A stretch of 64,000 bases of DNA. Source: an uncultured Saprospiraceae bacterium. Lineage in GTDB: Bacteria; Bacteroidota; Bacteroidia; Chitinophagales; Saprospiraceae. The first letter of the stretch is position 1. The number at the start of each line of letters is the position of its first letter. The notes beneath the pieces are model-generated. The model had not been told where the DNA came from. It searched no databases and saw only the letters and a program-made list of their open reading frames with translations. The stretch is from positions 4,839 through 68,838 of the forward strand of contig CALLAW010000022.1 in NCBI GenBank assembly GCA_938001865.1, given 5' to 3'. Of the stretch, positions 2,059 to 26,911 are shown one piece after another. The position numbers and the translations under genes are program-made.

Positions 2059-3165
2059 ATGACAAAGCGAACAGCATTTTATGATATACATGTCAAGGCA
2101 GGTGCCAAGATAGTCCCATTTGCAGGTTACGACATGCCAGTAGTCTATACCTCTATCAGCGAAGAGCATCTCGGAGTGAGGCAGGCAGTAGGACTCTTTG
2201 ATGTCTCACATATGGGACAGTTCATCGTACGAGGCAAGCAAGCTTATGACCTTGTGCAGCAAGTCAGTAGCAATGATGCCTCCAAGCTCTCACCAGGAGA
2301 AGCACAGTATAGTTGTCTACCCAATGCTGATGGTGGCGTGATAGACGATCTCATAGTCTACAGACTCTTCGATGATCAGTGCTCTGCAGGAGAGCAAGCC
2401 TACATGCTTGTGGTCAATGCCTCCAATATCGACAAAGACTGGAAGTGGATCTCCGAGGCCAATACATACGATACACAACTCATCAATATCTCCGATAAGA
2501 CGAGTCTCTTAGCTCTCCAGGGTCCTAAGGCTCTAGATGTGCTGAGGACTCTCACTGATGTAAATGTCGATGAGATTGCCTTTTACAACTTTGCCAAAGG
2601 TACAGTAGCGGGGATAGACAACGTACTCATATCAGCAACCGGATATACAGGTGCAGGCGGGGTAGAGCTCTACTTCGACGAGTCTCGGAGTGCAGAGATG
2701 TGGGATGCATTACTGGTAGCTGGTAAGCCAGAAGGTCTTGTCCTAGCGGGATTAGGTGCTAGAGATACTCTGAGACTGGAGAAGGCATACTGTCTCTATG
2801 GACACGAACTGGATGATGAGACCTCACCAATATCAGCAGGTCTAGGATGGATAGTTAAGACTAAAAAGGAAGAACAATTCTACAGTAAATCAATATTCGT
2901 AGACCAACGTAAGTCTGGAACTCCACGAAGATTAGTCGGATTCCGTATGGATGACAGACGTATCCCTAGACAAGGCTACGAACTCTGTGATACTGACCAG
3001 AATATCATCGGTAGGGTTACCTCTGGTACCATGTCGCCAAGCTTAGATGTGCCGATAGGCCTAGGATATATCGATGTCAAGCACAAAGAAGTAGGGACAG
3101 AGATACTACTCAAAATCAGAAGTAAATATTATCCAGCAAAAGTGGTGAAAATGCCATTTCTCTAA
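2059..3165 (+). CDS. gcvT: Glycine cleavage system T protein (aminomethyltransferase)
   Basis: 368 aa. 'RTAFYDIHVKAGAKIVPFAGYDMPVVY' and 'GLFDVSHMGQF' match GcvT, as do length and colinearity. Confidence 0.95.
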   Translation: MTKRTAFYDIHVKAGAKIVPFAGYDMPVVYTSISEEHLGVRQAVGLFDVSHMGQFIVRGKQAYDLVQQVSSNDASKLSPGEAQYSCLPNADGGVIDDLIVYRLFDDQCSAGEQAYMLVVNASNIDKDWKWISEANTYDTQLINISDKTSLLALQGPKALDVLRTLTDVNVDEIAFYNFAKGTVAGIDNVLISATGYTGAGGVELYFDESRSAEMWDALLVAGKPEGLVLAGLGARDTLRLEKAYCLYGHELDDETSPISAGLGWIVKTKKEEQFYSKSIFVDQRKSGTPRRLVGFRMDDRRIPRQGYELCDTDQNIIGRVTSGTMSPSLDVPIGLGYIDVKHKEVGTEILLKIRSKYYPAKVVKMPFL

Positions 3166-3210
3166 ACAATCTGATCTAAAGTCCTATTATACTAGATAGC
3201 GAATATAATT

Positions 3211-3705
3211 ATGAACTATCAAGAAGCTAGAACAGAGTTTGTAGAGCGATGGGGCTCACTAGGGATCAACTGGGGTGTCAATCGTATCTTGGGTCAGATC
3301 CACGGGTTACTCCTGACTGCCACTGAGCCCATGTGTGCTGATGATATCATATCGATGCTAGACATCTCTAGGGGGAGTGTCAACACTAATCTGCGGATAC
3401 TCATAGATTGGGAGCTCATCGAGAAGTGTCATATCACTGATAAGCGCAAAGAGTTCTTTACTGCCGAGAAGGATATGTGGATTATTTTCTGCCAGATCAT
3501 CAAGCAAAGAAGAAAGAAAGAACTCGACCCCCTCTTAGAGACACTACAGACTCTAGCCGTATTAGAGTCATCATGTGACCATTCCAAGGAACTCTCCGAT
3601 ATGATCAAAAGTATCGATCTCTTCTCAAGGAAAGTCGATAAGGCACTGCACCAAATCGTCAAAGAGAAACCAAATTTTCTTGTCTCTACATATCTCAGAA
3701 TGTAG
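3211..3705 (+). CDS. MarR/GbsR-type winged-helix transcriptional regulator
   Basis: 164 aa with an N-terminal winged-HTH-like segment 'MCADDIISMLDISRGSVNTNLRILIDWELIEK'. Size and layout resemble GbsR/MarR-like regulators. Confidence 0.6.
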   Translation: MNYQEARTEFVERWGSLGINWGVNRILGQIHGLLLTATEPMCADDIISMLDISRGSVNTNLRILIDWELIEKCHITDKRKEFFTAEKDMWIIFCQIIKQRRKKELDPLLETLQTLAVLESSCDHSKELSDMIKSIDLFSRKVDKALHQIVKEKPNFLVSTYLRM

Positions 3706-3838
3706 GTTTACCAAATATCATGTTACCAATCGGACAAGCTGAATGACAATGCTGAGATAGACTCCCTGCTTTCATGAAGTTTTTGCATCTTGTGATTTCT
3801 AATGGTTTAAAATAAGATCTCACTTATCCTTTATATTT

Positions 3839-4900
3839 ATGCAAATTGCAAGTTTCCGCCCTCTGATTCCAGATTCTAAAAAAATCGGTATCCCCAAATC
3901 ATTTTTTACGACAGTAAAAGACCAGTATATCGAGTATAGAGACAATGGATACTTCGAGGAGGCCGACAAAGATCAAGTCATCATCTATGATATTACACTC
4001 AATGGTAAAGTCCATACAGGATTTATCTGCTGTATAGACTCCCAAGAAATCACGCAAGGTAATGTCATCAGACATGAGAATACTCTCAAAGAGAAAGAGG
4101 TGCTCATGATGAAACTTATCAAAGATAGACAGGCTAATATCAAACCAATACTCCTGACGATACCTAACTCCAAAAATATCGATAAGTGGGTCAAGTCACA
4201 GAGAAGCAAAGACACGATCTCATACGCTTATGGGAAGTCTGAGCTGCATACACTGACTCCAGTGACCAATAAGAAAGCAATCAAAGAGATCATAAATCTC
4301 TTCGACAAAGAAGTCCCTAGGGCATATATCGCTGACGGTCATCATCGATGTTTTTCGATTGATTACTTACTGGAGAAAGATCCAGTCAAGTATAGTAAGG
4401 TCTTGGTCGTGTTCTTTCCGTTCAGTGATTTGATGATCAAGCCGTACAACCGTATCGTAGAGTTTGACAAGAAGATGTCAGCAAATGCCCTCGTCAAGAT
4501 ACTTCAAGACTTTGTCAGCATCAAGCAGGTAGATCGCTTCATCCAATCAGATACTCGGAAGAGGTTCTGTGTCTATATCGATAGTAAGTGGTATAGCTGC
4601 CAATGGGATAAGGAGCTACTCAAGAGGATAGATGGAGGGAGTCTTGATCTCTTCAACCACCATATCCTCAATGATGGTCTATATCGACATCCTCATACGA
4701 CTCACTATATCCAAGGAGACACGGCACCTAAGCAAGTCGTCAAGACTGTCGACAAATTGAAAAATAGTGCTGGATTTTTCTTTGCACCTTTGACGTATGA
4801 TCGATTGATTGGAGTACTGGATACAGGTAGACTCGTAGTGCCTAAGAGTACCTACTTCGAGCCTCGGATGCGTAACGGTGTCGTCGTCCAACATCTCTAA
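3839..4900 (+). CDS. DUF1015 family protein
   Basis: 353 aa. Contains the 'IADGHHR' motif I associate with DUF1015. Confidence 0.7.
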   Translation: MQIASFRPLIPDSKKIGIPKSFFTTVKDQYIEYRDNGYFEEADKDQVIIYDITLNGKVHTGFICCIDSQEITQGNVIRHENTLKEKEVLMMKLIKDRQANIKPILLTIPNSKNIDKWVKSQRSKDTISYAYGKSELHTLTPVTNKKAIKEIINLFDKEVPRAYIADGHHRCFSIDYLLEKDPVKYSKVLVVFFPFSDLMIKPYNRIVEFDKKMSANALVKILQDFVSIKQVDRFIQSDTRKRFCVYIDSKWYSCQWDKELLKRIDGGSLDLFNHHILNDGLYRHPHTTHYIQGDTAPKQVVKTVDKLKNSAGFFFAPLTYDRLIGVLDTGRLVVPKSTYFEPRMRNGVVVQHL

Positions 4901-19366: not shown

Positions 19367-21268
19367 CTATCTTGCAATCACTATTTTCTCTCTTACGTTA
19401 TGAGTTGAGTTTAGATCATGGAGTTCTAGTAGATAGGTACCAGGTGGTAGGGAACTTAGATTAATTTGGCTTTCGTTGTACGCTGTTAGTATCAATTGTC
19501 CTTGTAAGTCATAGAGACTCACCTTATAGCTTAGTTGACCAACTACATCAATGTATATGATATCTATTACTGGATTAGGATGGATGTTTACCGTAGTATT
19601 TGCTATGTCATAGGTAGATGAAAGTAAGTCCATTCCATCACAATCTTCATCAATTCCATTATTTGGTATCTCCACAGCATTAGGATTTATTGCTGAGTTA
19701 TCGTCATTGCAATCTTCGGCAATTGAGAACCCATCTTGATCTAAATCATCATCAAGAGTTAATGCATCACAATCATCGTCAATTCCATTGTATGGTTCTT
19801 CAATTTGGGCAGGATTAATATTAGGGTTATTGTCGTCACAGTCCTCATCAGCAAAGAAGCCATCACCATCTAAATCAATTAAAGCCGACTTGTACAGATA
19901 GAGCTCTCTTCCGAGACTATCTGTTTTTCCAATAAAGAATAAATTTTGACCAGCTGATACAATTTGTGAAATTTCATTCCCAGATTCTTCACCGATAGAA
20001 CTCACTTTTTTTGTACCCTCTGCAGTACCATCAGATTTATATAGATCATTGTTAAACGGCCAACTTACTTTTCTGCCTACCATAAAGAGGCTATCATTAT
20101 GACTGGTAAGCCAGTATCCATTGGATATATTGTTATTTGGAATTTCGGTAGGTTGTAGTATTACTTCTGTCCCTTCGATAGTTCCGTCTGTTTGTAATGT
20201 AGAGATACTTGGGGCATCAAATGGTTGAGAGCCGTAGTATCCACTAAAAAACAACTTATCATTCAGAGTCGTGAAATATCTTGGGTTCATTTCGATCCCT
20301 GATGGCACCTCGATTCGAAAAGTCCCATCTATAGTCCCATCCGAACTCCATAAGTGCCGATCATTGTCTGCATCTATTCCTTCGAATAAAACCTTATTAC
20401 CAATGACACCAATAGTTCTCGAAGCCAGAGATCTATAATATCGTTCATTTTCTGTATTCAAGACTTGAGTACCATCACTTGTGCCATCGGTGACATACAG
20501 AGCACCGTCATGTGTGCCATCACCAAACCAAAAGAATAGGTTAGTATCTGCAATAGTCATATTGACTGAAGTTCTTGAGGCCATATCAACATTTGCGGAA
20601 TAGAACTCGTGTATCAGATCAATATTCGCCTCTCCATCATACGAAGCCAAAAATGATCCTGTCATATTTTCAGGCCAAAGAATCATATAAATTAGGTCGT
20701 TATAGACGATCATATCTTTTAATCCATCTCGCATAAACCATCTCGTCTCTATAATCTCTTCAATATCATCACTCGTAGGATTGATGCTTGTAGGATCAAT
20801 ACTGCATAGAAACTCAGTAAAGTTAGACCTCTTTTTAAAGTAAATTTTATCCTTAAATTCGAGGTATAATTCTATGAATCCAGACTCCTCTAATAAGGTG
20901 TCAACAACACCAGTCTCTGAAATTCTAATAATTCTAGAAGAATCTAACGTATTGTATTCTGCTAGATAGAGATGTCCGTCAAACCTTAATCTCCCTGCAA
21001 CTATTTCAGAGTTAGATAGATTGTGGATATTTTTGGTTTCTTCTGATGTTCCATTAGAATATAGAATATGATCGTCATTTGCTATTACTATTGCATTGCC
21101 TATAGTGCCTAGCACTCTTGCATTATCTACAATACCGTCTTGTGATCCAAGATTTAGATCTAGGACTAATTCTGCATTTTGACCATATATAAGTGTGGTT
21201 GCAAGTAATAATAAATGGACAATTATTAATATCATATTTTTTTTGCATTTTATTTTTTTAAAATTCAA
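19367..21268 (-). CDS. Secreted ELWxxDGT-repeat protein with MopE-like metal-binding motifs and a T9SS C-terminal sorting domain
   Basis: 633 aa with a signal peptide. Repeats are 'LYVTDGTSDGTQV', 'LWSSDGTIDGT', 'LQTDGTIEGTEV' and 'LYKSDGTAEGTKKV'. Two 'DCDDxNxxINPxAxExxxNGIDxDCD' units lie at nt ~19633-19873. The C-terminus reads 'IHPNPV..LYDLQGQLI..PGTYLLEL'. Confidence 0.75.
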   Translation of the reverse strand: MNFKKIKCKKNMILIIVHLLLLATTLIYGQNAELVLDLNLGSQDGIVDNARVLGTIGNAIVIANDDHILYSNGTSEETKNIHNLSNSEIVAGRLRFDGHLYLAEYNTLDSSRIIRISETGVVDTLLEESGFIELYLEFKDKIYFKKRSNFTEFLCSIDPTSINPTSDDIEEIIETRWFMRDGLKDMIVYNDLIYMILWPENMTGSFLASYDGEANIDLIHEFYSANVDMASRTSVNMTIADTNLFFWFGDGTHDGALYVTDGTSDGTQVLNTENERYYRSLASRTIGVIGNKVLFEGIDADNDRHLWSSDGTIDGTFRIEVPSGIEMNPRYFTTLNDKLFFSGYYGSQPFDAPSISTLQTDGTIEGTEVILQPTEIPNNNISNGYWLTSHNDSLFMVGRKVSWPFNNDLYKSDGTAEGTKKVSSIGEESGNEISQIVSAGQNLFFIGKTDSLGRELYLYKSALIDLDGDGFFADEDCDDNNPNINPAQIEEPYNGIDDDCDALTLDDDLDQDGFSIAEDCNDDNSAINPNAVEIPNNGIDEDCDGMDLLSSTYDIANTTVNIHPNPVIDIIYIDVVGQLSYKVSLYDLQGQLILTAYNESQINLSSLPPGTYLLELHDLNSTHNVREKIVIAR

Positions 21269-21931
21269 TTATGATTCTGTCTGTAATGTGGGTTAGTTCT
21301 AATGCCAAATAAACCTTCAAGTAATTTGAAAACCGTCTTTACAGATTTCTTGAGTGAACTCTAAATAGTCATCTACCAATTTTTTGAGAGCCTATTTAGG
21401 TTCACTAATTAGGTAAGTACGCTTATCAATCCGTTATCCTGCATATACGAATAGAAGAATAAAATTGAACACTTGATGTAGAGGACGCCAATCAAAAAAC
21501 AATACATCCAGTAAAGGAGTTCTAAAAAAAACAATATTCAAAGAGAACAGTAGGAAAAGAGATTAAATTCAAATGTAATGATTGTTGAATAAACAACAAG
21601 GTACACAGAAATCAAATGTTTGCTACATCATCAAAACTAACTGCACTAATAAGTAGTTAAATTGGTCTCATAATAATTGTTGACTCAGTAGTTATTTAAT
21701 ATAACATTAGATTGTCAAAAATTTGTGAATGGGAATCGGCTGTCTAATTATCTCTTCAAGTATCGCTTCAATTATCTATTCAAATCAAGTGAATTTTTAA
21801 AACGCAGATTTGCAGCTTTTGTATTTTAGTTCTTGATTGTAATGATAAATTATTGTCGTAACATTTTGATTTACCGCAGATTGTTAGTAGTTTGACTGAA
21901 AGCTAAAAGCCATTACATAAAAAATACAATT

Positions 21932-24241
21932 ATGAATATTATTTCTACAATTAGTATTACACTAAGTTTTTTTATTTTTTTTCCCAACTCATTAAAATCC
22001 CAAATTACTATAGATGAGCTATCTGGATCTTCAGATCTGATTGTGGAAGCCAAGATTGTAAATCAATCTGTTTTTCTTCATGGAGACGGAAATATATATA
22101 CAATGCATGATTTGGTTGTGTACAAAAATTTTACTGAAGATATTGAGTTAGATACGGTACAAATTATTTCGGCAGGAGGGGAACTGGATAATGGTAATCA
22201 AAGCTTCTCTCACTCTCTAAGACTAATATATAATGAGACTGCTATTTACTTCCTTCAACATTCAAAAGTTTTTGATAAAACTTATGTACCAGTATTTGGA
22301 AATAATGGAATAATTCGTATACATGAAGTGAGAAAGAATAAGTTCATTGGGCAACATGGCACAAATGTATTATCCAACTTGAAAAGAGACTTGTATGACC
22401 CTATTTATGAAACTACCAAGGCAATTAATATTATTCGACTTAATGAATATGAGATTTTTGTTAAATCTAAGAACCCTACTGATGAGGATTGTGTTGAATA
22501 TTCCATAAATGATGTCTCAATAAGCCAAGACATGGGTGACGGTAATAGCAATTTGCATTTTAGTGTAAATATTAGATCAAATAACCCGTTTAAATTGAAT
22601 AGTGCCACTATCGACATTAACTACTCAAGTAACATTGGGGAAAATATTGTATCTCAAAGTCTTGTGAATTTAGTTAATGGACCGTCATTTAATAACTATA
22701 ATTATCATTTAGTTGATAAAGAACCAAATGTTATTTCTCTAAATTGCATACTTAAGCCACAAGCAGAAGCTTTAGAAATAAATACCTATAAAGATAATTT
22801 GTTTTCATGTTCAGTTAGCATTAAGGATCTAAACATTCAAGATATCTTATCTTTTGATGTGAATCAAAATGACATTGAAACAACTCGTATTGAAAATGAT
22901 ATCATAGGTGAAATAAAATGTAATTCATTTGAAGGTATTGATGACTCATTAGTAGGCTCTCTTTTAACGCCAGAAATCACAAGCTACTCTGAAAATGTTT
23001 ATGCAGGGACTAAAACATTATTTTCTATTGAAGGCGTAAATTTGTTAGGTGATCAAGAAACTCAGTTTGCTGAAGTTTGGTTTACCAATTGTTTTAATGG
23101 GCCTTTTGGAATGGTTAAACCATATTTCTCAGATTATAAAACACTTACTAATGAACTAATTGAGGTTTATGTTCCATCTTATGCATTAGATGCATTCAGT
23201 GGAAGCAATTTTAACACTGAGAATGCAGGTTCTGGTATTTTTAAAATTGTGTACAGAGACTTCAATACTGGAGATATTATTGATGAAACCGAGGAGAATT
23301 TTGTTGAAATTCTATATGGTATAAATAACAGGTTTTATGAATTAAATGAAGAAAATGTAACATTAACTCAACCTATACTATTGCAAAACGCTAATAATGG
23401 AGGGTACATTATTAGCTACACTCCAGAATTTGATACAATAAAAGATTTGAATGGTTTTTATTTTAAAGATGCCTTTAGACGTGCCGTAGATAGATGGTGT
23501 GAAGTAACGAATCTAAATCTTACCATTGACGAGAATGCTTATCCAAATGGAATTTATGACATTGTTGTTGATTATGGTAGCATAAATGGTGTGTTTGCTT
23601 CTGCAACAACGGGCTCTTTTTCGATTACCGATGTTAATTGTCCTATAAGTTTAAATAATGGAAGTTCCAATCACCCAGAAGATACTGAAGTTGATGTTAT
23701 TGCAAAATCAATAATTACATTTAATAAAGATAAACCTATTGGAACATGGACTGCAGAAAGTTTACAAATGCCTCCCTTGACTTCTGTAGAGGCTACTTCA
23801 CTTCATGAAATCGGTCATGCCCATGGCTTGACTCATATTAATATAGAAGATGAACTTATGTACTATGACAACAAATCAATTACAATCAATAATAACACAA
23901 TAAATGCAAGTAAGTTTGTTCAAGACCATAGTAGTATGCTTTCTTGCAGTTCAATCTCTGCGTATCAACATGCTGAATGTACTACTAGTGTACAAAATTT
24001 TGATGATAATATTAGTGTTTCGGCATCATATTACAATGAAAGTATTGAGATTTTTACTAAAGATGATTTCGACACTTTTGAAATTGATATTTACAATATT
24101 AATGGAAAATTTATTCACAAAGAACTACTTGATGCAAACACCTTAAAATTTACATTTTCCAACAAACCTCCCGGATTATATTTTTTAATAATTAAAACGC
24201 CACAAGGATACTTCTCAAGCAAAATATTAGTAAATGATTAA
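21932..24241 (+). CDS. Secreted metzincin-type zinc metalloprotease with a T9SS C-terminal sorting domain
   Basis: 769 aa with a signal peptide. The zinc site 'HEIGHAHGLTH' (HExxHxxGxxH) is at nt 23804-23836. The C-terminus reads 'IDIYNINGKFIH...PPGLYFLIIKT'. The gene is very AT-rich. Confidence 0.75.
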   Translation: MNIISTISITLSFFIFFPNSLKSQITIDELSGSSDLIVEAKIVNQSVFLHGDGNIYTMHDLVVYKNFTEDIELDTVQIISAGGELDNGNQSFSHSLRLIYNETAIYFLQHSKVFDKTYVPVFGNNGIIRIHEVRKNKFIGQHGTNVLSNLKRDLYDPIYETTKAINIIRLNEYEIFVKSKNPTDEDCVEYSINDVSISQDMGDGNSNLHFSVNIRSNNPFKLNSATIDINYSSNIGENIVSQSLVNLVNGPSFNNYNYHLVDKEPNVISLNCILKPQAEALEINTYKDNLFSCSVSIKDLNIQDILSFDVNQNDIETTRIENDIIGEIKCNSFEGIDDSLVGSLLTPEITSYSENVYAGTKTLFSIEGVNLLGDQETQFAEVWFTNCFNGPFGMVKPYFSDYKTLTNELIEVYVPSYALDAFSGSNFNTENAGSGIFKIVYRDFNTGDIIDETEENFVEILYGINNRFYELNEENVTLTQPILLQNANNGGYIISYTPEFDTIKDLNGFYFKDAFRRAVDRWCEVTNLNLTIDENAYPNGIYDIVVDYGSINGVFASATTGSFSITDVNCPISLNNGSSNHPEDTEVDVIAKSIITFNKDKPIGTWTAESLQMPPLTSVEATSLHEIGHAHGLTHINIEDELMYYDNKSITINNNTINASKFVQDHSSMLSCSSISAYQHAECTTSVQNFDDNISVSASYYNESIEIFTKDDFDTFEIDIYNINGKFIHKELLDANTLKFTFSNKPPGLYFLIIKTPQGYFSSKILVND

Positions 24242-24815
24242 GGCAATTCAAATTTCTGTTATCTTGTTAATATGCTGCACTGGTTGCAATCCAAAGGCAA
24301 ATAAATTAACTGGCGAAAACATAATTTACGAATATGATAAATCCAATTTTATGTCTGGAGGGTGTTATTATATTGAAAATTCAGAAGATTGCGTAAAATC
24401 ACAATTTATCATTGAAATACAACCTTATAAATTAGATACTATTGAATCAGTTATTAGTGAAGCTGAGTTAGGAAAGTATACTTTAGATTCAGTGAATTTC
24501 TCTATACCCGTAAGGCCCTATGTTGCTTATTTTGTTAAGTCAAATGAGCCAAAGGCAGTTGAATTGTCGAAAAGTGTTTCACCTGATGTTATAATTTGTA
24601 GCAAAGAAATACCTGCTGTAAAAAAAACATTCACTCGCAATGAACTAATTTCATCGAATTACAAAATTAAGAGGTTAGTACTTGTTGAAGAAAGTAAAAT
24701 ACTTAAAACGATGGTTTCAAATACTCCTATTGATTTGAAAGAAAATCAATTTTATTTTCCTATTTCCAATTGGTGCGATTTTAAACGAATTGTTTGGGGA
24801 GGGAGTCATCTTTAA
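24234..24815 (+). CDS. Hypothetical lipoprotein
   Basis: 193 aa with a lipoprotein-like signal 'VILLICCTGC'. The start overlaps the protease gene by 8 nt. No recognisable domain. Confidence 0.5.
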   Translation: MIKAIQISVILLICCTGCNPKANKLTGENIIYEYDKSNFMSGGCYYIENSEDCVKSQFIIEIQPYKLDTIESVISEAELGKYTLDSVNFSIPVRPYVAYFVKSNEPKAVELSKSVSPDVIICSKEIPAVKKTFTRNELISSNYKIKRLVLVEESKILKTMVSNTPIDLKENQFYFPISNWCDFKRIVWGGSHL

Positions 24816-24817
24816 AT

Positions 24818-24850
24818 TAAAGCACTATTTAAGGGTGCTTTATTTGGCTT
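24818..24850 (+). terminator. Putative rho-independent terminator after the lipoprotein gene
   Basis: Perfect 8-bp stem TAAAGCAC (24818-24825) / GTGCTTTA (24836-24843) with a 10-nt loop, followed by the T-rich TTTGGCTTT. Confidence 0.5.
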
Positions 24851-24951
24851 TATCAAAGGAATTAGTGTTAAGTATAAAATATAAGGCCATTTATTGATGG
24901 TGAATAAAGGGAAAGAAGAAATGAGTAAATTGATAAACAAATGAAAATCGA

Positions 24952-25730
24952 GTAGGTAAAGGGGAATCTCACCCCTAAACCTCTCACAGAACCGTACTTG
25001 ACAGTCTCCCGTCATACGGCTCTTCATACTCATGAAACCAGCTAAGGTTTCGCACCCTACTCCGTTCTTCCCATTAAATAAATAATGGTTGACAGAAAAT
25101 GCCGAGTATGTCAACCCCTTCGCTCATCCAAACTTTCGAGTGGATTAATTTAGTACTTTCGCTACTACGAGTTGATCTGCCACTACTCCACTGCTTCGGT
25201 ATTTTGCTTTCTTTAATATGGCATTTCCCTTATCATCAGCAGGTAGCTTCCCCTGTTCCTTTAATGAGCCCATCTATGATTCATGCTGCCTTAATACCGT
25301 TGGTCAATCTACTCGCCTGCTAGGGTTTACGGTAGATCTATTCGCCATTAGCGAACATGCTTTTCTCGGACACGCCAATCCTCAATTATCAACCAAATCT
25401 ATCCACAAGTCAATATATGAATTCAAGCAATTTATCGTCTTGAATTCTCCATGCGGGTTACTTTCGATACTTCATCGGACAGTTCACTTTCATTCATCTC
25501 TCATAAAAACACCTTGCTGAGATCACTTTCATGTCCAGCTTTTCCAATTCGCTCAGTACCAACTCGTGAAGAGTAAGCACCAATTGGTAGGTTTCTAAGA
25601 TTGTAGCAAACCTAAGGATGGTTCATTTCAATTCTTCAATCGAAATCCCATCATCTCATTAAAAGTTTTGTTACTCAATAATTCAAAGAACATTCATTAA
25701 ATTAGTACCCTTGAGTAACGCAGGGCACAC
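24952..25730 (-). mobile_element. ORF-less group II intron (about 780 nt, no reverse transcriptase/maturase ORF)
   Basis: On the minus strand the 5' end GTGTGCCCTGCG fits GUGYG (starts at 25730). A canonical 34-nt domain V lies at 24989-25022. It is followed by a domain-VI-like hairpin GGTTTAGGGG-tgagat-TCCCCTTTACC with an unpaired A, ending ..CTAC near 24952. The interior has 'ACTCGTAGTAGCGAAAGTAC', similar to the domain II/III junction region of Ll.LtrB as I remember it. No long ORF and no YADD-type RT motif occur in any frame. The boundaries are approximate. Confidence 0.7.
24989..25022 (-). ncRNA. Group II intron domain V (catalytic hairpin)
   Basis: Minus strand reads GAGCCGTAT-GACGG-GAGA-CTGTC-AA-GTACGGTTC. 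This gives the AGC triad, a 9-bp lower stem including G-U pairs, a 2-nt AA bulge, a 5-bp upper stem and a GNRA tetraloop (GAGA). The domain V consensus is GAGCCGUAU....GAAA....ACGUACGGUUC. Confidence 0.85.
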
Positions 25731-25828
25731 TACGCAGGATAACACGGTATGATCAGGGAATGGCTCGTACCTCACCACTCCCGATATACCCACTCCTATA
25801 GTTACGCCTATTTCGCTGCGGTAGTTTG

Positions 25829-26911
25829 CTACAGTTTGACCCAGGTCTTCACTTTGCTTGTAGTCTGATGCAGTCTGTGACTCAGTTGGACTTGGTATGT
25901 AGCTGCGGGTAGGAGTGTATTGATCTTGACGACATGATACGTATCCATCGGTGAGAGGGGGAGTGTCAATATCATGGTTCCATTGTTATCATAGAGAGTG
26001 ACATGAGTCCAAGAGTGATCTGATGCTAATCTGAGTGTATGAGTGCTACTAGGATTTGGCGAGAGTGTCCAATCAGGGAGTATACTCTCATCCTCAACTG
26101 AAACGGTTACACATGGATTGATCACAGTCTCTTGACAGTAGAGTCTCTCAGCCAGCGAGCAGTCGATGACGAATGGATTGGGAATGTCACCTTGGTATCC
26201 TGCGATCTGATAAGTCTTAACGAGCTCATCTTGCTCGGCTGGATCTTGAGCAGACCATTGGCAGAGGGTGTTGCGCTGCATCTCGAAGAACTCTGGAGCG
26301 GTACTGTTGGCTAGGTCTTGATAGATTGTATAAAAGTAGAAGATGGCTCTCGCGACATCACCTTTAAACTCTTCTCTGGGCTCGAATCCATCATCGGTAT
26401 CTTCTGCCCAATCATCAATACTCGTCGATGGTGGATTAGACTGAGTCTGATTAGAATAGAACCATCGTTGTGCTTGATTATCAGGGATATCTCTGTAGAT
26501 GTCATTGCCTCTCGCTGAGTTGACAGCCACTCGAGTGGGGAAGAGATGATGCATATCTGAGTGACCAGGAGTACCCTCTAGAGCACCCATGCTCCTTGGG
26601 TAGCTATGCTCTGTATTGATATCTTCATTGCCACCATTGCTGGTAAATACTGCTTGGGTAGGATCGAGATCTGGATCAAGGTATCGCTTCCAGCCAGAGT
26701 AGACACACTCAAGTGTATCGTTTTTGGCCCAGATATTTGCGAATAGCGTATCCCTTGCCATCGAATAACTCATGACCGAATCAGTCGTGTAGTTGCTCTG
26801 GATCGCATCCATCAAGTCTTGACCGTCTAAGTTGCCGAATAGGGTCTCAAACTCTTGGGCAGAGACCGTCGTAGTGAGACATGTAAGGAGGATGAGTATC
26901 AGGTGATTCAT
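25829..26911 (-). CDS. Secreted Endonuclease I family nuclease with a T9SS C-terminal sorting domain
   Basis: 360 aa with a signal peptide. Motifs are 'NTEHSYPRS', 'DMHHLFP' and 'NSARGN'. The C-terminal ~80 aa read 'WTLSPNPSS..VTLYDNNGTMI..ATYQVQL'. Confidence 0.8.
   Translation of the reverse strand: MNHLILILLTCLTTTVSAQEFETLFGNLDGQDLMDAIQSNYTTDSVMSYSMARDTLFANIWAKNDTLECVYSGWKRYLDPDLDPTQAVFTSNGGNEDINTEHSYPRSMGALEGTPGHSDMHHLFPTRVAVNSARGNDIYRDIPDNQAQRWFYSNQTQSNPPSTSIDDWAEDTDDGFEPREEFKGDVARAIFYFYTIYQDLANSTAPEFFEMQRNTLCQWSAQDPAEQDELVKTYQIAGYQGDIPNPFVIDCSLAERLYCQETVINPCVTVSVEDESILPDWTLSPNPSSTHTLRLASDHSWTHVTLYDNNGTMILTLPLSPMDTYHVVKINTLLPAATYQVQLSHRLHQTTSKVKTWVKL

Follow-up and report, generated by a model that had tools for sequence, protein, structure and literature searches.

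The 64,000-nt window (the whole stretch of DNA analyzed here, from contig CALLAW010000022.1 of an uncultured Saprospiraceae bacterium) carries on its minus strand, at 24947..25730, a structurally complete group II intron that has all six domains and no intron-encoded protein. The intron lies in the spacer between two convergent genes, a short distance past the stop codon of a nuclease gene, and it has relatives of similar size at differing sites. We consider it likely that this is an RmInt1-like (class D-like, IIB-type) intron whose reverse transcriptase (RT)/maturase gene was lost from domain IV, and that the copy is a non-autonomous retroelement served in trans. The domain map below follows the consensus structure of alignment A1, which comprises ten family members including the window copy.

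24947..25730, minus strand: whole intron without an open reading frame (ORF), 784 nt, from 5' GUGUG to 3' ..CUACUCGAU; from Rfam, about 30 relatives and the fold z-score
25726..25730, minus strand: 5' splice-site motif GUGUG, invariant in A1 and in all subfamily members
25251..25730 (intron 1 to ~480; 3' limit approximate), minus strand: domain I; from A1, main stem intron 66-473, compensatory changes in helices
25512..25641, minus strand: domain I core, RF01999, 46.1 bits
25182..25247 (intron 484-549), minus strand: domain II; consensus structure, 11 of 11 pairs with both-side changes across the family
25112..25174 (intron 557-619), minus strand: domain III, including the invariant AGCGAAGGG; A1 consensus structure and pair test
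25024..25111 (intron 620-707), minus strand: domain IV, 88 nt, no ORF
24989..25022 (intron 709-742), minus strand: domain V, with AGC triad, AA bulge and GAGA loop; RF00029
24949..24986 (intron 745-782), minus strand: domain VI, with bulged branch adenosine 24953 and a distal helix with compensatory changes

Identity and boundaries of the intron

Two Rfam covariance models match the element. RF00029 (Intron_gpII), which covers domains V and VI, scores 64.5 bits on minus-strand positions 25024..24947 (E=2e-10; gathering score 40), and RF01999 (group-II-D1D4-2, domain I core) matches 25641..25512 on the same strand above its gathering score of 36. The match therefore extends past domain V, the point on which a first-pass annotation of this DNA had let its call depend. 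The Rfam scan returned no other group II model match in the window. About 30 relatives align with the element between a common 5' GUGUG and a common 3' CUACUCGAY. Its first 80-110 nt share 70-81% identity with about 20 related metagenome introns, all of which begin GUGUG(Y)CCUGCGUUAC at the homologous position. The predicted fold of the 784 nt has an energy of -232 kcal/mol, with a z-score of -6.3 against shuffled sequences.

Read directly, domain V is a 34-nt hairpin, GAGCCGUAUGACGG-GAGA-CUGUCAAGUACGGUUC, with the AGC triad and a 2-nt AA bulge, exactly where the first-pass annotation had placed it (24989-25022), and it is identical or nearly identical in more than 100 loci. The domain VI hairpin with an unpaired A, also foreseen there, was borne out by both the Rfam alignment and the minimum-free-energy fold: adenosine 24953 is bulged and stands 7 nt from the 3' end, counting the A itself. 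The branch A is thus bulged and the 3' end is ..CGAU, which is of the AY type. Domain IV contains a small hairpin, CCAUUA..UAAUGG, followed by GAAGAA.

These features also settle the limits of the intron. The GTGTG end at 25730 was confirmed by alignment with the relatives. The earlier extent of 24952-25730 (about 780 nt) holds at this 5' limit and fails at the 3' limit, where a ..CTAC end at 24952 had been proposed: the A at 24953 is the bulged branch adenosine, and both the Rfam alignment and the minimum-free-energy fold put the true terminus, ..CUCGAU, at position 24947, 6 nt past that adenosine and 5 nt past the proposed end. The CUACUCGAY terminus is conserved in every relative.

A more modest reading would have the element be only a 3' fragment, domains V and VI, adjoining a chance GTGTG. 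The score of the domain I model is modest (46.1 bits), and nothing else favors this reading; that score exceeds the gathering score, relatives can be aligned throughout with the first 80-110 nt and with domains I-IV, and helices covary in domains I, II and III. We regard the 3'-fragment reading as refuted by the RF01999 match, the full-length alignment and the covarying helices, and give it virtually no chance of being right.

Structural conservation

Alignment A1 has a mean column identity of 53% and a consensus of 126 pairs, of which 120 pairs (19 helices) were retained after removal of one unsupported helix. Controls were made by sliding the pairing partners by 1-3 columns and by 500 shuffles. 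In the 120 pairs, 92.8% of the cells are paired, vs 40-44% in the slid controls, and both-side changes occur in 73 pairs, vs 24-39. None of the 500 shuffles reached the observed value on all five measures. The window copy itself forms 105 of the 126 consensus pairs, 19 of them via both-side changes, and retains 128 of the 143 columns (89.5%) that are invariant in the other nine members, while each of the other members retains 87-100%.

RNAalifold also pairs the 5' GUGUGCC (25730-25724) with GGCRGAC between domains II and III (25181-25175) in 10 of 10 members. Variation in this helix (A1 columns 1-7 with 664-670) is one-sided, from G-C to G-U. In the window copy it would join GUGUGCC (1-7) to GGCGGAC in the joint between domains II and III; with no compensatory change, it was dropped from the structure test. 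The pairing could be a chance effect of two conserved motifs.

Exon recognition and insertion site

The 5' exons of the subfamily share the motif TKGTTR at -15..-10, followed by about nine variable bases. In full, the family's target consensus also has a G at -3 and a T at -2, and its positions +1..+8 are rich in T; the window site fits it. Exon-binding sites (EBS) of the intron and the intron-binding sites (IBS) of the exon were assigned as follows.

25457..25461 (intron 270-274), minus strand: EBS2 GUAAC, pairs with exon -13..-9 GUUAU, 5 bp
25739..25743, minus strand: IBS2 GUUAU, 5' exon -13..-9, matches the subfamily target consensus TKGTTR
25388..25447 (intron 284-343), minus strand: two extra hairpins in the interval from EBS2 to the EBS1 hairpin, private to the window copy; from a local fold
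25368..25381, minus strand: EBS1-homologous hairpin GGAU-UGGCGU-GUCC, aligns with the relatives' GAGGGAU-UGRCGG-UCUUGCGAGA
25376..25371, minus strand: EBS1 candidate GGCGUG, pairs with exon -6..-2
25731..25736, minus strand: expected IBS1 UGCGUA, -6..-1, weakly complementary to the EBS1 loop
Exon junction expected on accurate splicing: ..CCUGCGUA followed directly by UUUCAUUU

In an internal loop homologous to the window EBS2, the relatives carry AACAAC or AUAAC, complementary to their own conserved exon motif. The EBS1 loop likewise fits an element's own last 4-8 exon bases better than those of others (mean score 4.34 vs 3.23; Mann-Whitney p=1e-5; 32 elements). Exon recognition is therefore real in the family. 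For the window copy, EBS/IBS pairing, which the first-pass annotation had named as the mark of a whole domain I, was found in part: EBS2-IBS2 pairs over 5 bp, and EBS1-IBS1 is weak. The loops of the two extra hairpins hold GAUAA and GGAUAG, and either could pair with exon -12..-7 as well. Covariation among 34 elements gave no EBS3 candidate: not one column of domain I varies in step with the first base of the 3' exon.

Because the conserved exon motif lies 9-15 nt upstream of GUGUG, a shift of the 5' splice site like that of C.te.I1 was first suspected. This candidate was rejected: EBS2 is the pairing partner of the upstream motif, and the bases that close the exon covary with EBS1.

Absence of a protein gene

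No same-strand ORF of at least 60 aa lies within the intron. A search of the 64-kb window by tblastn with 11 related intron proteins found no RT gene (best E=0.72). The first-pass annotation was thus right on both counts, an ORF-free domain IV (88 nt) and a window free of RT genes. It had also read a 100-aa 'ORF' at 24812-25114 as intron translation, which stands; the frame covers domains IV-VI plus the 3' exon, however, and not domains V and VI only.

The hairpin and purine-rich run of domain IV survive in the ORF-less forms and occupy the same place as a hairpin that precedes the start codon in full-length relatives. By analogy with other group II introns, the surviving hairpin could be the primary binding site of the protein.

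Assignment to RmInt1-like introns

Full-length relatives of 1.95-2.08 kb have the same 5' end and domain VI, and encode proteins of 388-444 aa, mostly 420-422 aa. The one protein scanned, from locus L195, has RVT_1 and GIIM domains and no endonuclease domain, and is 45% identical over 416 residues, C-terminal extension included, to a 419-aa Sinorhizobium meliloti intron protein. RF01999 scores 123 bits on the multi-copy S. meliloti intron RNA, where it is the best-scoring Rfam model, and 46-98 bits on the family of the window intron. Host, copy number and protein length are the only grounds for equating locus L239 with RmInt1 or a close relative.

On the size and proteins of its relatives, the 45% identity to the S. 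meliloti protein, the shared RF01999 model and the AGC triad, we file the RNA as RmInt1-like, class D-like and IIB-type, with the proviso that class is defined by protein phylogeny and the window element is protein-less. Two other classes were considered and ruled out. Class B has a CGC triad in domain V (PMC4024640), vs AGC here. Against class C stand the EBS2-IBS2 pairing and a 5' exon without a stem-loop.

ORF-less relatives

Relatives were collected in two ways. A degenerate pattern for domain V picked out 115 loci in the GTDB species representatives, most of them from Bacteroidota, and a domain VI pattern picked out at least 120 loci in metagenomes. The search patterns bias this sample, on which the family-level observations depend, and its size is limited. 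ORF-less relatives of 640-840 nt are numerous in Bacteroidota genomes and metagenomes and stand at differing sites. Of the 115 GTDB loci that the domain V pattern retrieved, at least 12 are ORF-less, and in these 12 the RF01999 and RF00029 matches are 430-650 nt apart. The hosts are Prolixibacteraceae, Sunxiuqinia, Draconibacterium, an unclassified Bacteroidales metagenome-assembled genome (MAG), Cardinium, Cyclobacteriaceae, Sporocytophaga, Flavobacterium, Tenacibaculum, Ferruginibacter and Saprospiraceae. About half of the close metagenome relatives recovered are ORF-less as well. ORF-less copies are therefore not uncommon in this family, contrary to what the first-pass annotation supposed of bacterial group II introns in general.

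The window copy and six other loci (L115, L150, L203, L137, L218 and L104) have a homologous short domain IV, ..UUUGCCAAC, hairpin, GGAUGAGC .. AACCUGAAAUGGUU.., and L232 and L222 run collinear with L150 and have no space for an ORF, as do the partial copies L174 and L152. Members of this lineage are 74-95% identical to each other and bear no recognizable ORF remnant, and the sample holds no protein-encoding member of the lineage. L150 and L203 are 95% identical and their exons differ on both sides; the form without an ORF has therefore moved. Protein-encoding relatives with matching EBS1 hairpins exist for two further ORF-less groups: L143/L198 for L012/L229/L142/L145/L119, and L165/L138/L167 for L205/L193/L189/L200. 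This points to repeated loss of the ORF.

We tentatively propose, at somewhat less than even confidence, that the window intron is a divergent member of a miniature (~680-840 nt) RmInt1-like lineage that is ORF-less in all sampled members, structurally selected, and moving between sites and between Bacteroidota genomes. If this is true, ORF-less group II introns can persist for long as horizontally spreading non-autonomous retroelements. Persistence of such a lineage would contradict a 2015 review in which ORF-less bacterial group II introns are called rare and non-mobile derivatives short-lived (PMC4424553). In later surveys group II introns without an ORF form a recognized category (PMC8919778), and the window element adds to that already known category. 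What is mildly new is at the family level: an exclusively ORF-less, diversified Bacteroidota lineage and its apparent antisense insertion at gene ends.

Several other loci were unusual. The ORF-less L119 (intron 3784..3005) has a hairpin insertion of about 24 nt, AGCCUGUCCCGAUUUUUCUUCGGGA, at the bulge of a domain V that is elsewhere invariant, which is unusual for the catalytic domain. L075 (2089-2521) is a very short relative, with some 430 nt for everything between the start of its domain I core and the close of domain VI, apparently without the EBS1 region and domain II and with no GUGUG upstream; it may be a truncated or miniaturized copy. In one Saprospiraceae MAG (JAYWBA01), the same domain V lies about 20 nt from an end of each of eight contigs (L014, L017, L020, L021, L027, L072, L077 and L081), as is typical when an intron in many copies breaks the assembly. 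In L188 (3007-3048), no base separates the 5' GUGUG of one intron from the CCUACUCGAC with which another copy ends, and in L143 (~4183-4204) and L203 (~3507-3535) the intron begins 11-13 nt after the GUCUACUCGAU end of a different intron. The exact domain V 34-mer had no match in viral contigs.

A copy probably served in trans, or possibly a relic

In the likely history set out at the start, a related RT/maturase of 420 aa, from a full-length intron elsewhere, would bind the RNA and aid splicing. The lariat ribonucleoprotein would then reverse-splice into a DNA site chosen by EBS2/EBS1 pairing, the inserted RNA would be copied into DNA, and the window copy would in this way have reached its spacer. 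Experiments have shown such a mechanism in Thermosynechococcus elongatus, whose ORF-less TeI3 introns derive from one deletion, then proliferated, and are mobilised by the proteins of related introns (PMC2882425). The analysis shows the identity and limits of the window intron, its lack of an ORF, its family, the conservation of its structure and the fit of its site to the family target; a maturase acting in trans, transcription together with the nuclease gene and any activity at present are inferred.

Several observations weigh against this history. In the homologous register, EBS1-IBS1 pairing amounts to 5 bp, 2 Watson-Crick and 3 G-U, with a G-A mismatch at -1; the register that begins at -1 yields just 3 bp, fewer than in any other of the 34 elements. 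The exon-binding region contains private hairpins of about 60 nt in all, absent from the aligned relatives. At 83%, the window copy's share of consensus pairs is the lowest among the ten aligned members. No second copy of the exact variant, which would speak for recent mobility, was found in any collection; the nearest relatives are 70-81% identical over parts of the element. The search for a protein-encoding relative in the source genome covered 64 kb. Finally, no intron-free version of the site was found next to the two closest orthologues of the neighboring nuclease, whose downstream DNA is unrelated: L118 has no intron there, and the contig of L117 ends 60 nt past the stop codon with no intron start.

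A relic, or a passenger that splices poorly, is what the weak EBS1-IBS1 pairing, the private insertions and the missing sibling copies suggest. If it is a dead relic, the intron would have arrived by retromobility and lost its helper; it would now neither splice nor move, and would decay slowly as neutral DNA. The low pair fraction, the mismatch at -1, the insertions in domain I, a window without an RT gene, the failure to find a near-identical sibling anywhere, and the intron-free orthologue loci (with the limit on L117 just given) are all as this reading would have them. Against it, the GUGUG, AGC triad, domain V bulge, branch adenosine, 3' AU and the AGCGAAGGG of domain III are intact, 19 consensus pairs have been preserved by both-side changes, and the retention of invariant columns lies inside the range of the other members. 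Moreover, some of the 'broken pairs' of the window copy fall where MAFFT cannot align around the private insertion. The copy is divergent, and from the alignment no clear excess of degradation over L043 or L048 is evident. Recent constraint is suggested by a catalytic core that is intact and by helices with compensated changes, and we think the dead relic rather unlikely.

The first-pass annotation had left the choice between a maturase in trans and an immobile or decaying copy; with six domains present and no RT gene in the window, these were the right alternatives. Of the two, we favor the copy served in trans. Given the mismatched -1, the mostly G-U EBS1-IBS1 pairing and the extra hairpins, the window copy probably splices poorly and is carried along as a passenger, with no working role in the nuclease gene.

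Genomic context

The flanking features are as follows.

25829-26911, minus strand: Endonuclease_1 gene (PF04231), intact, 360 aa, with signal peptide and a C-terminal tail of the type IX secretion system (T9SS) type
24818-24842, no strand assigned: terminator-like hairpin after the convergent 193-aa ORF, 105 nt past the intron's 3' end

Homologues of the nuclease occur mainly in Saprospiraceae and also carry PF18962, and by comparison with them the window ORF is full length. The intron starts 98 nt past its stop codon on the same strand, as the first-pass annotation had it; that annotation also put the intron within the 3' region of the gene, whereas it lies outside the gene, in the 3' untranslated region (UTR) or spacer between the convergent genes. 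The terminator of the convergent gene that the intron was said to face corresponds to the hairpin at 24818-24842. The AT-rich border is real too, as GC falls from 42-46% to 27-34% on the 3' side of the intron. Since no terminator-like site was found between the nuclease stop codon and the intron, transcripts of the nuclease probably run on through the intron, which would then belong to their 3' UTR. The closest orthologues of the nuclease, in L117 (73% aa identity) and L118 (67%), have downstream DNA unrelated to the window.

Splicing would change no protein, judging from the reading frames: no plausible ORF that is restored or fused runs across the junction. This bears on a further alternative, in which the intron splices independently of protein and is kept for a host function, such as processing or stabilizing the 3' end of the nuclease mRNA. 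Its position on the nuclease strand with no intervening terminator would suit such a role, as would the conserved ribozyme structure, and C.te.I1 is a precedent for an ORF-less bacterial intron kept for gene expression (PMC4024640). On the other side, splicing would fuse no reading frames, the stop of the nuclease ORF being 98 nt upstream, no intron was seen downstream of the closest orthologues (within the 60 nt available in L117), relatives occupy many unrelated sites, and the hallmarks of C.te.I1 are missing: the window intron has a branch adenosine, has an EBS2 and shows no shift of its 5' splice site. A host function for the window intron is unlikely, and the protein-independent form of it just described appears highly improbable.

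The intron's 3' exon is also the edge of a block at 21000-24950 with 27-34% GC, vs 40-48% on either side. The block holds a 769-aa ORF (T9SS-type tail, metalloprotease-like HExxH motif) and the 193-aa lipoprotein-like ORF, and may be a horizontally acquired island. The flanks of the intron gave no meaningful match, in the window or in 237 loci, as a larger repeat or nested element.

Among 21 elements with at least 300 nt of downstream flank, 14 have a convergent ORF of at least 80 aa that ends -13..+38 nt from the intron, a count without a random-position control (L012, L150, L232, L205, L203, L229, L189, L115, L200, L188, L207, L155, L198 and L167). In 5 of the 14, the convergent ORF runs 13 nt into the intron and stops at a TAG that is the reverse complement of the CUA in CUACUCGA. 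In the window, the distance from the intron to the convergent ORF is 131 nt (24816-24946). The subfamily seems to insert antisense at gene stop codons.

Significance and comparison with known systems

The local significance of the intron is small, as it interrupts no gene and its splicing would alter no protein. It flags the RmInt1-like family in Bacteroidota as one in which protein-less copies are common, structurally conserved and apparently still mobile, and surveys that find group II introns via the RT gene overlook such copies. Compact natural ORF-less ribozymes with protein-encoding cousins would be handy for studying how one maturase serves several introns in trans. A maturase acting in trans is often invoked in models of the origin of spliceosomal introns.

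RmInt1 itself (S. meliloti; class D, IIB3; 419-aa protein without an endonuclease domain) shares RF01999 and the AGC triad with the window intron. Its insertion outside or between genes, which is retroelement behavior, is also that of the window family. It differs in that the window intron has no protein gene, begins with GUGUG and resides in the phylum Bacteroidota, and the class D link is indirect, via the proteins of relatives. Class C (IIC) introns, which insert after terminators, resemble the window intron in being intergenic and near gene ends; here, in contrast, there is no 5'-exon stem-loop and domain I matches RF01999. IIC introns also lack an EBS2-IBS2 pairing, and the window intron has one (PMC4024640).

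The TeI3 introns of T. elongatus are ORF-less through one domain IV deletion and occupy differing, often intergenic sites alongside ORF-containing relatives, whose 'driver' proteins mobilise them in trans (PMC2882425). The window lineage shares the short domain IV and the differing exons, a likeness that holds for the lineage and not for this genome. TeI3 introns are chloroplast-like IIB introns with endonuclease-domain helpers, all in one genome with known helper genes, whereas the window lineage is spread over many Bacteroidota genomes and metagenomes, at 74-95% identity and with no ORF remnant. C.te.I1 of Clostridium tetani is likewise an ORF-less bacterial intron of IIB type; it belongs to class B, and its 5' splice site is shifted 8 nt upstream of GUGYG (PMC4024640). 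The window intron differs from it in its AGC triad, branch adenosine and EBS2, and in an EBS1 that in relatives covaries with exon -1..-6.

The last comparison is with an intron of about 913 nt on the Shigella flexneri plasmid pWR501 (L001, 2831-3743), which matches RF01999 (81.8 bits) and RF00029 and has no intact protein gene. It is also present on many other Shigella and Escherichia coli plasmids, whose records have no annotated feature there. This intron differs in its proteobacterial host and in an RT remnant in domain IV (..GAAGVDG-like), and its similarity to the window intron is confined to the conserved cores, which cover 14% of the query.

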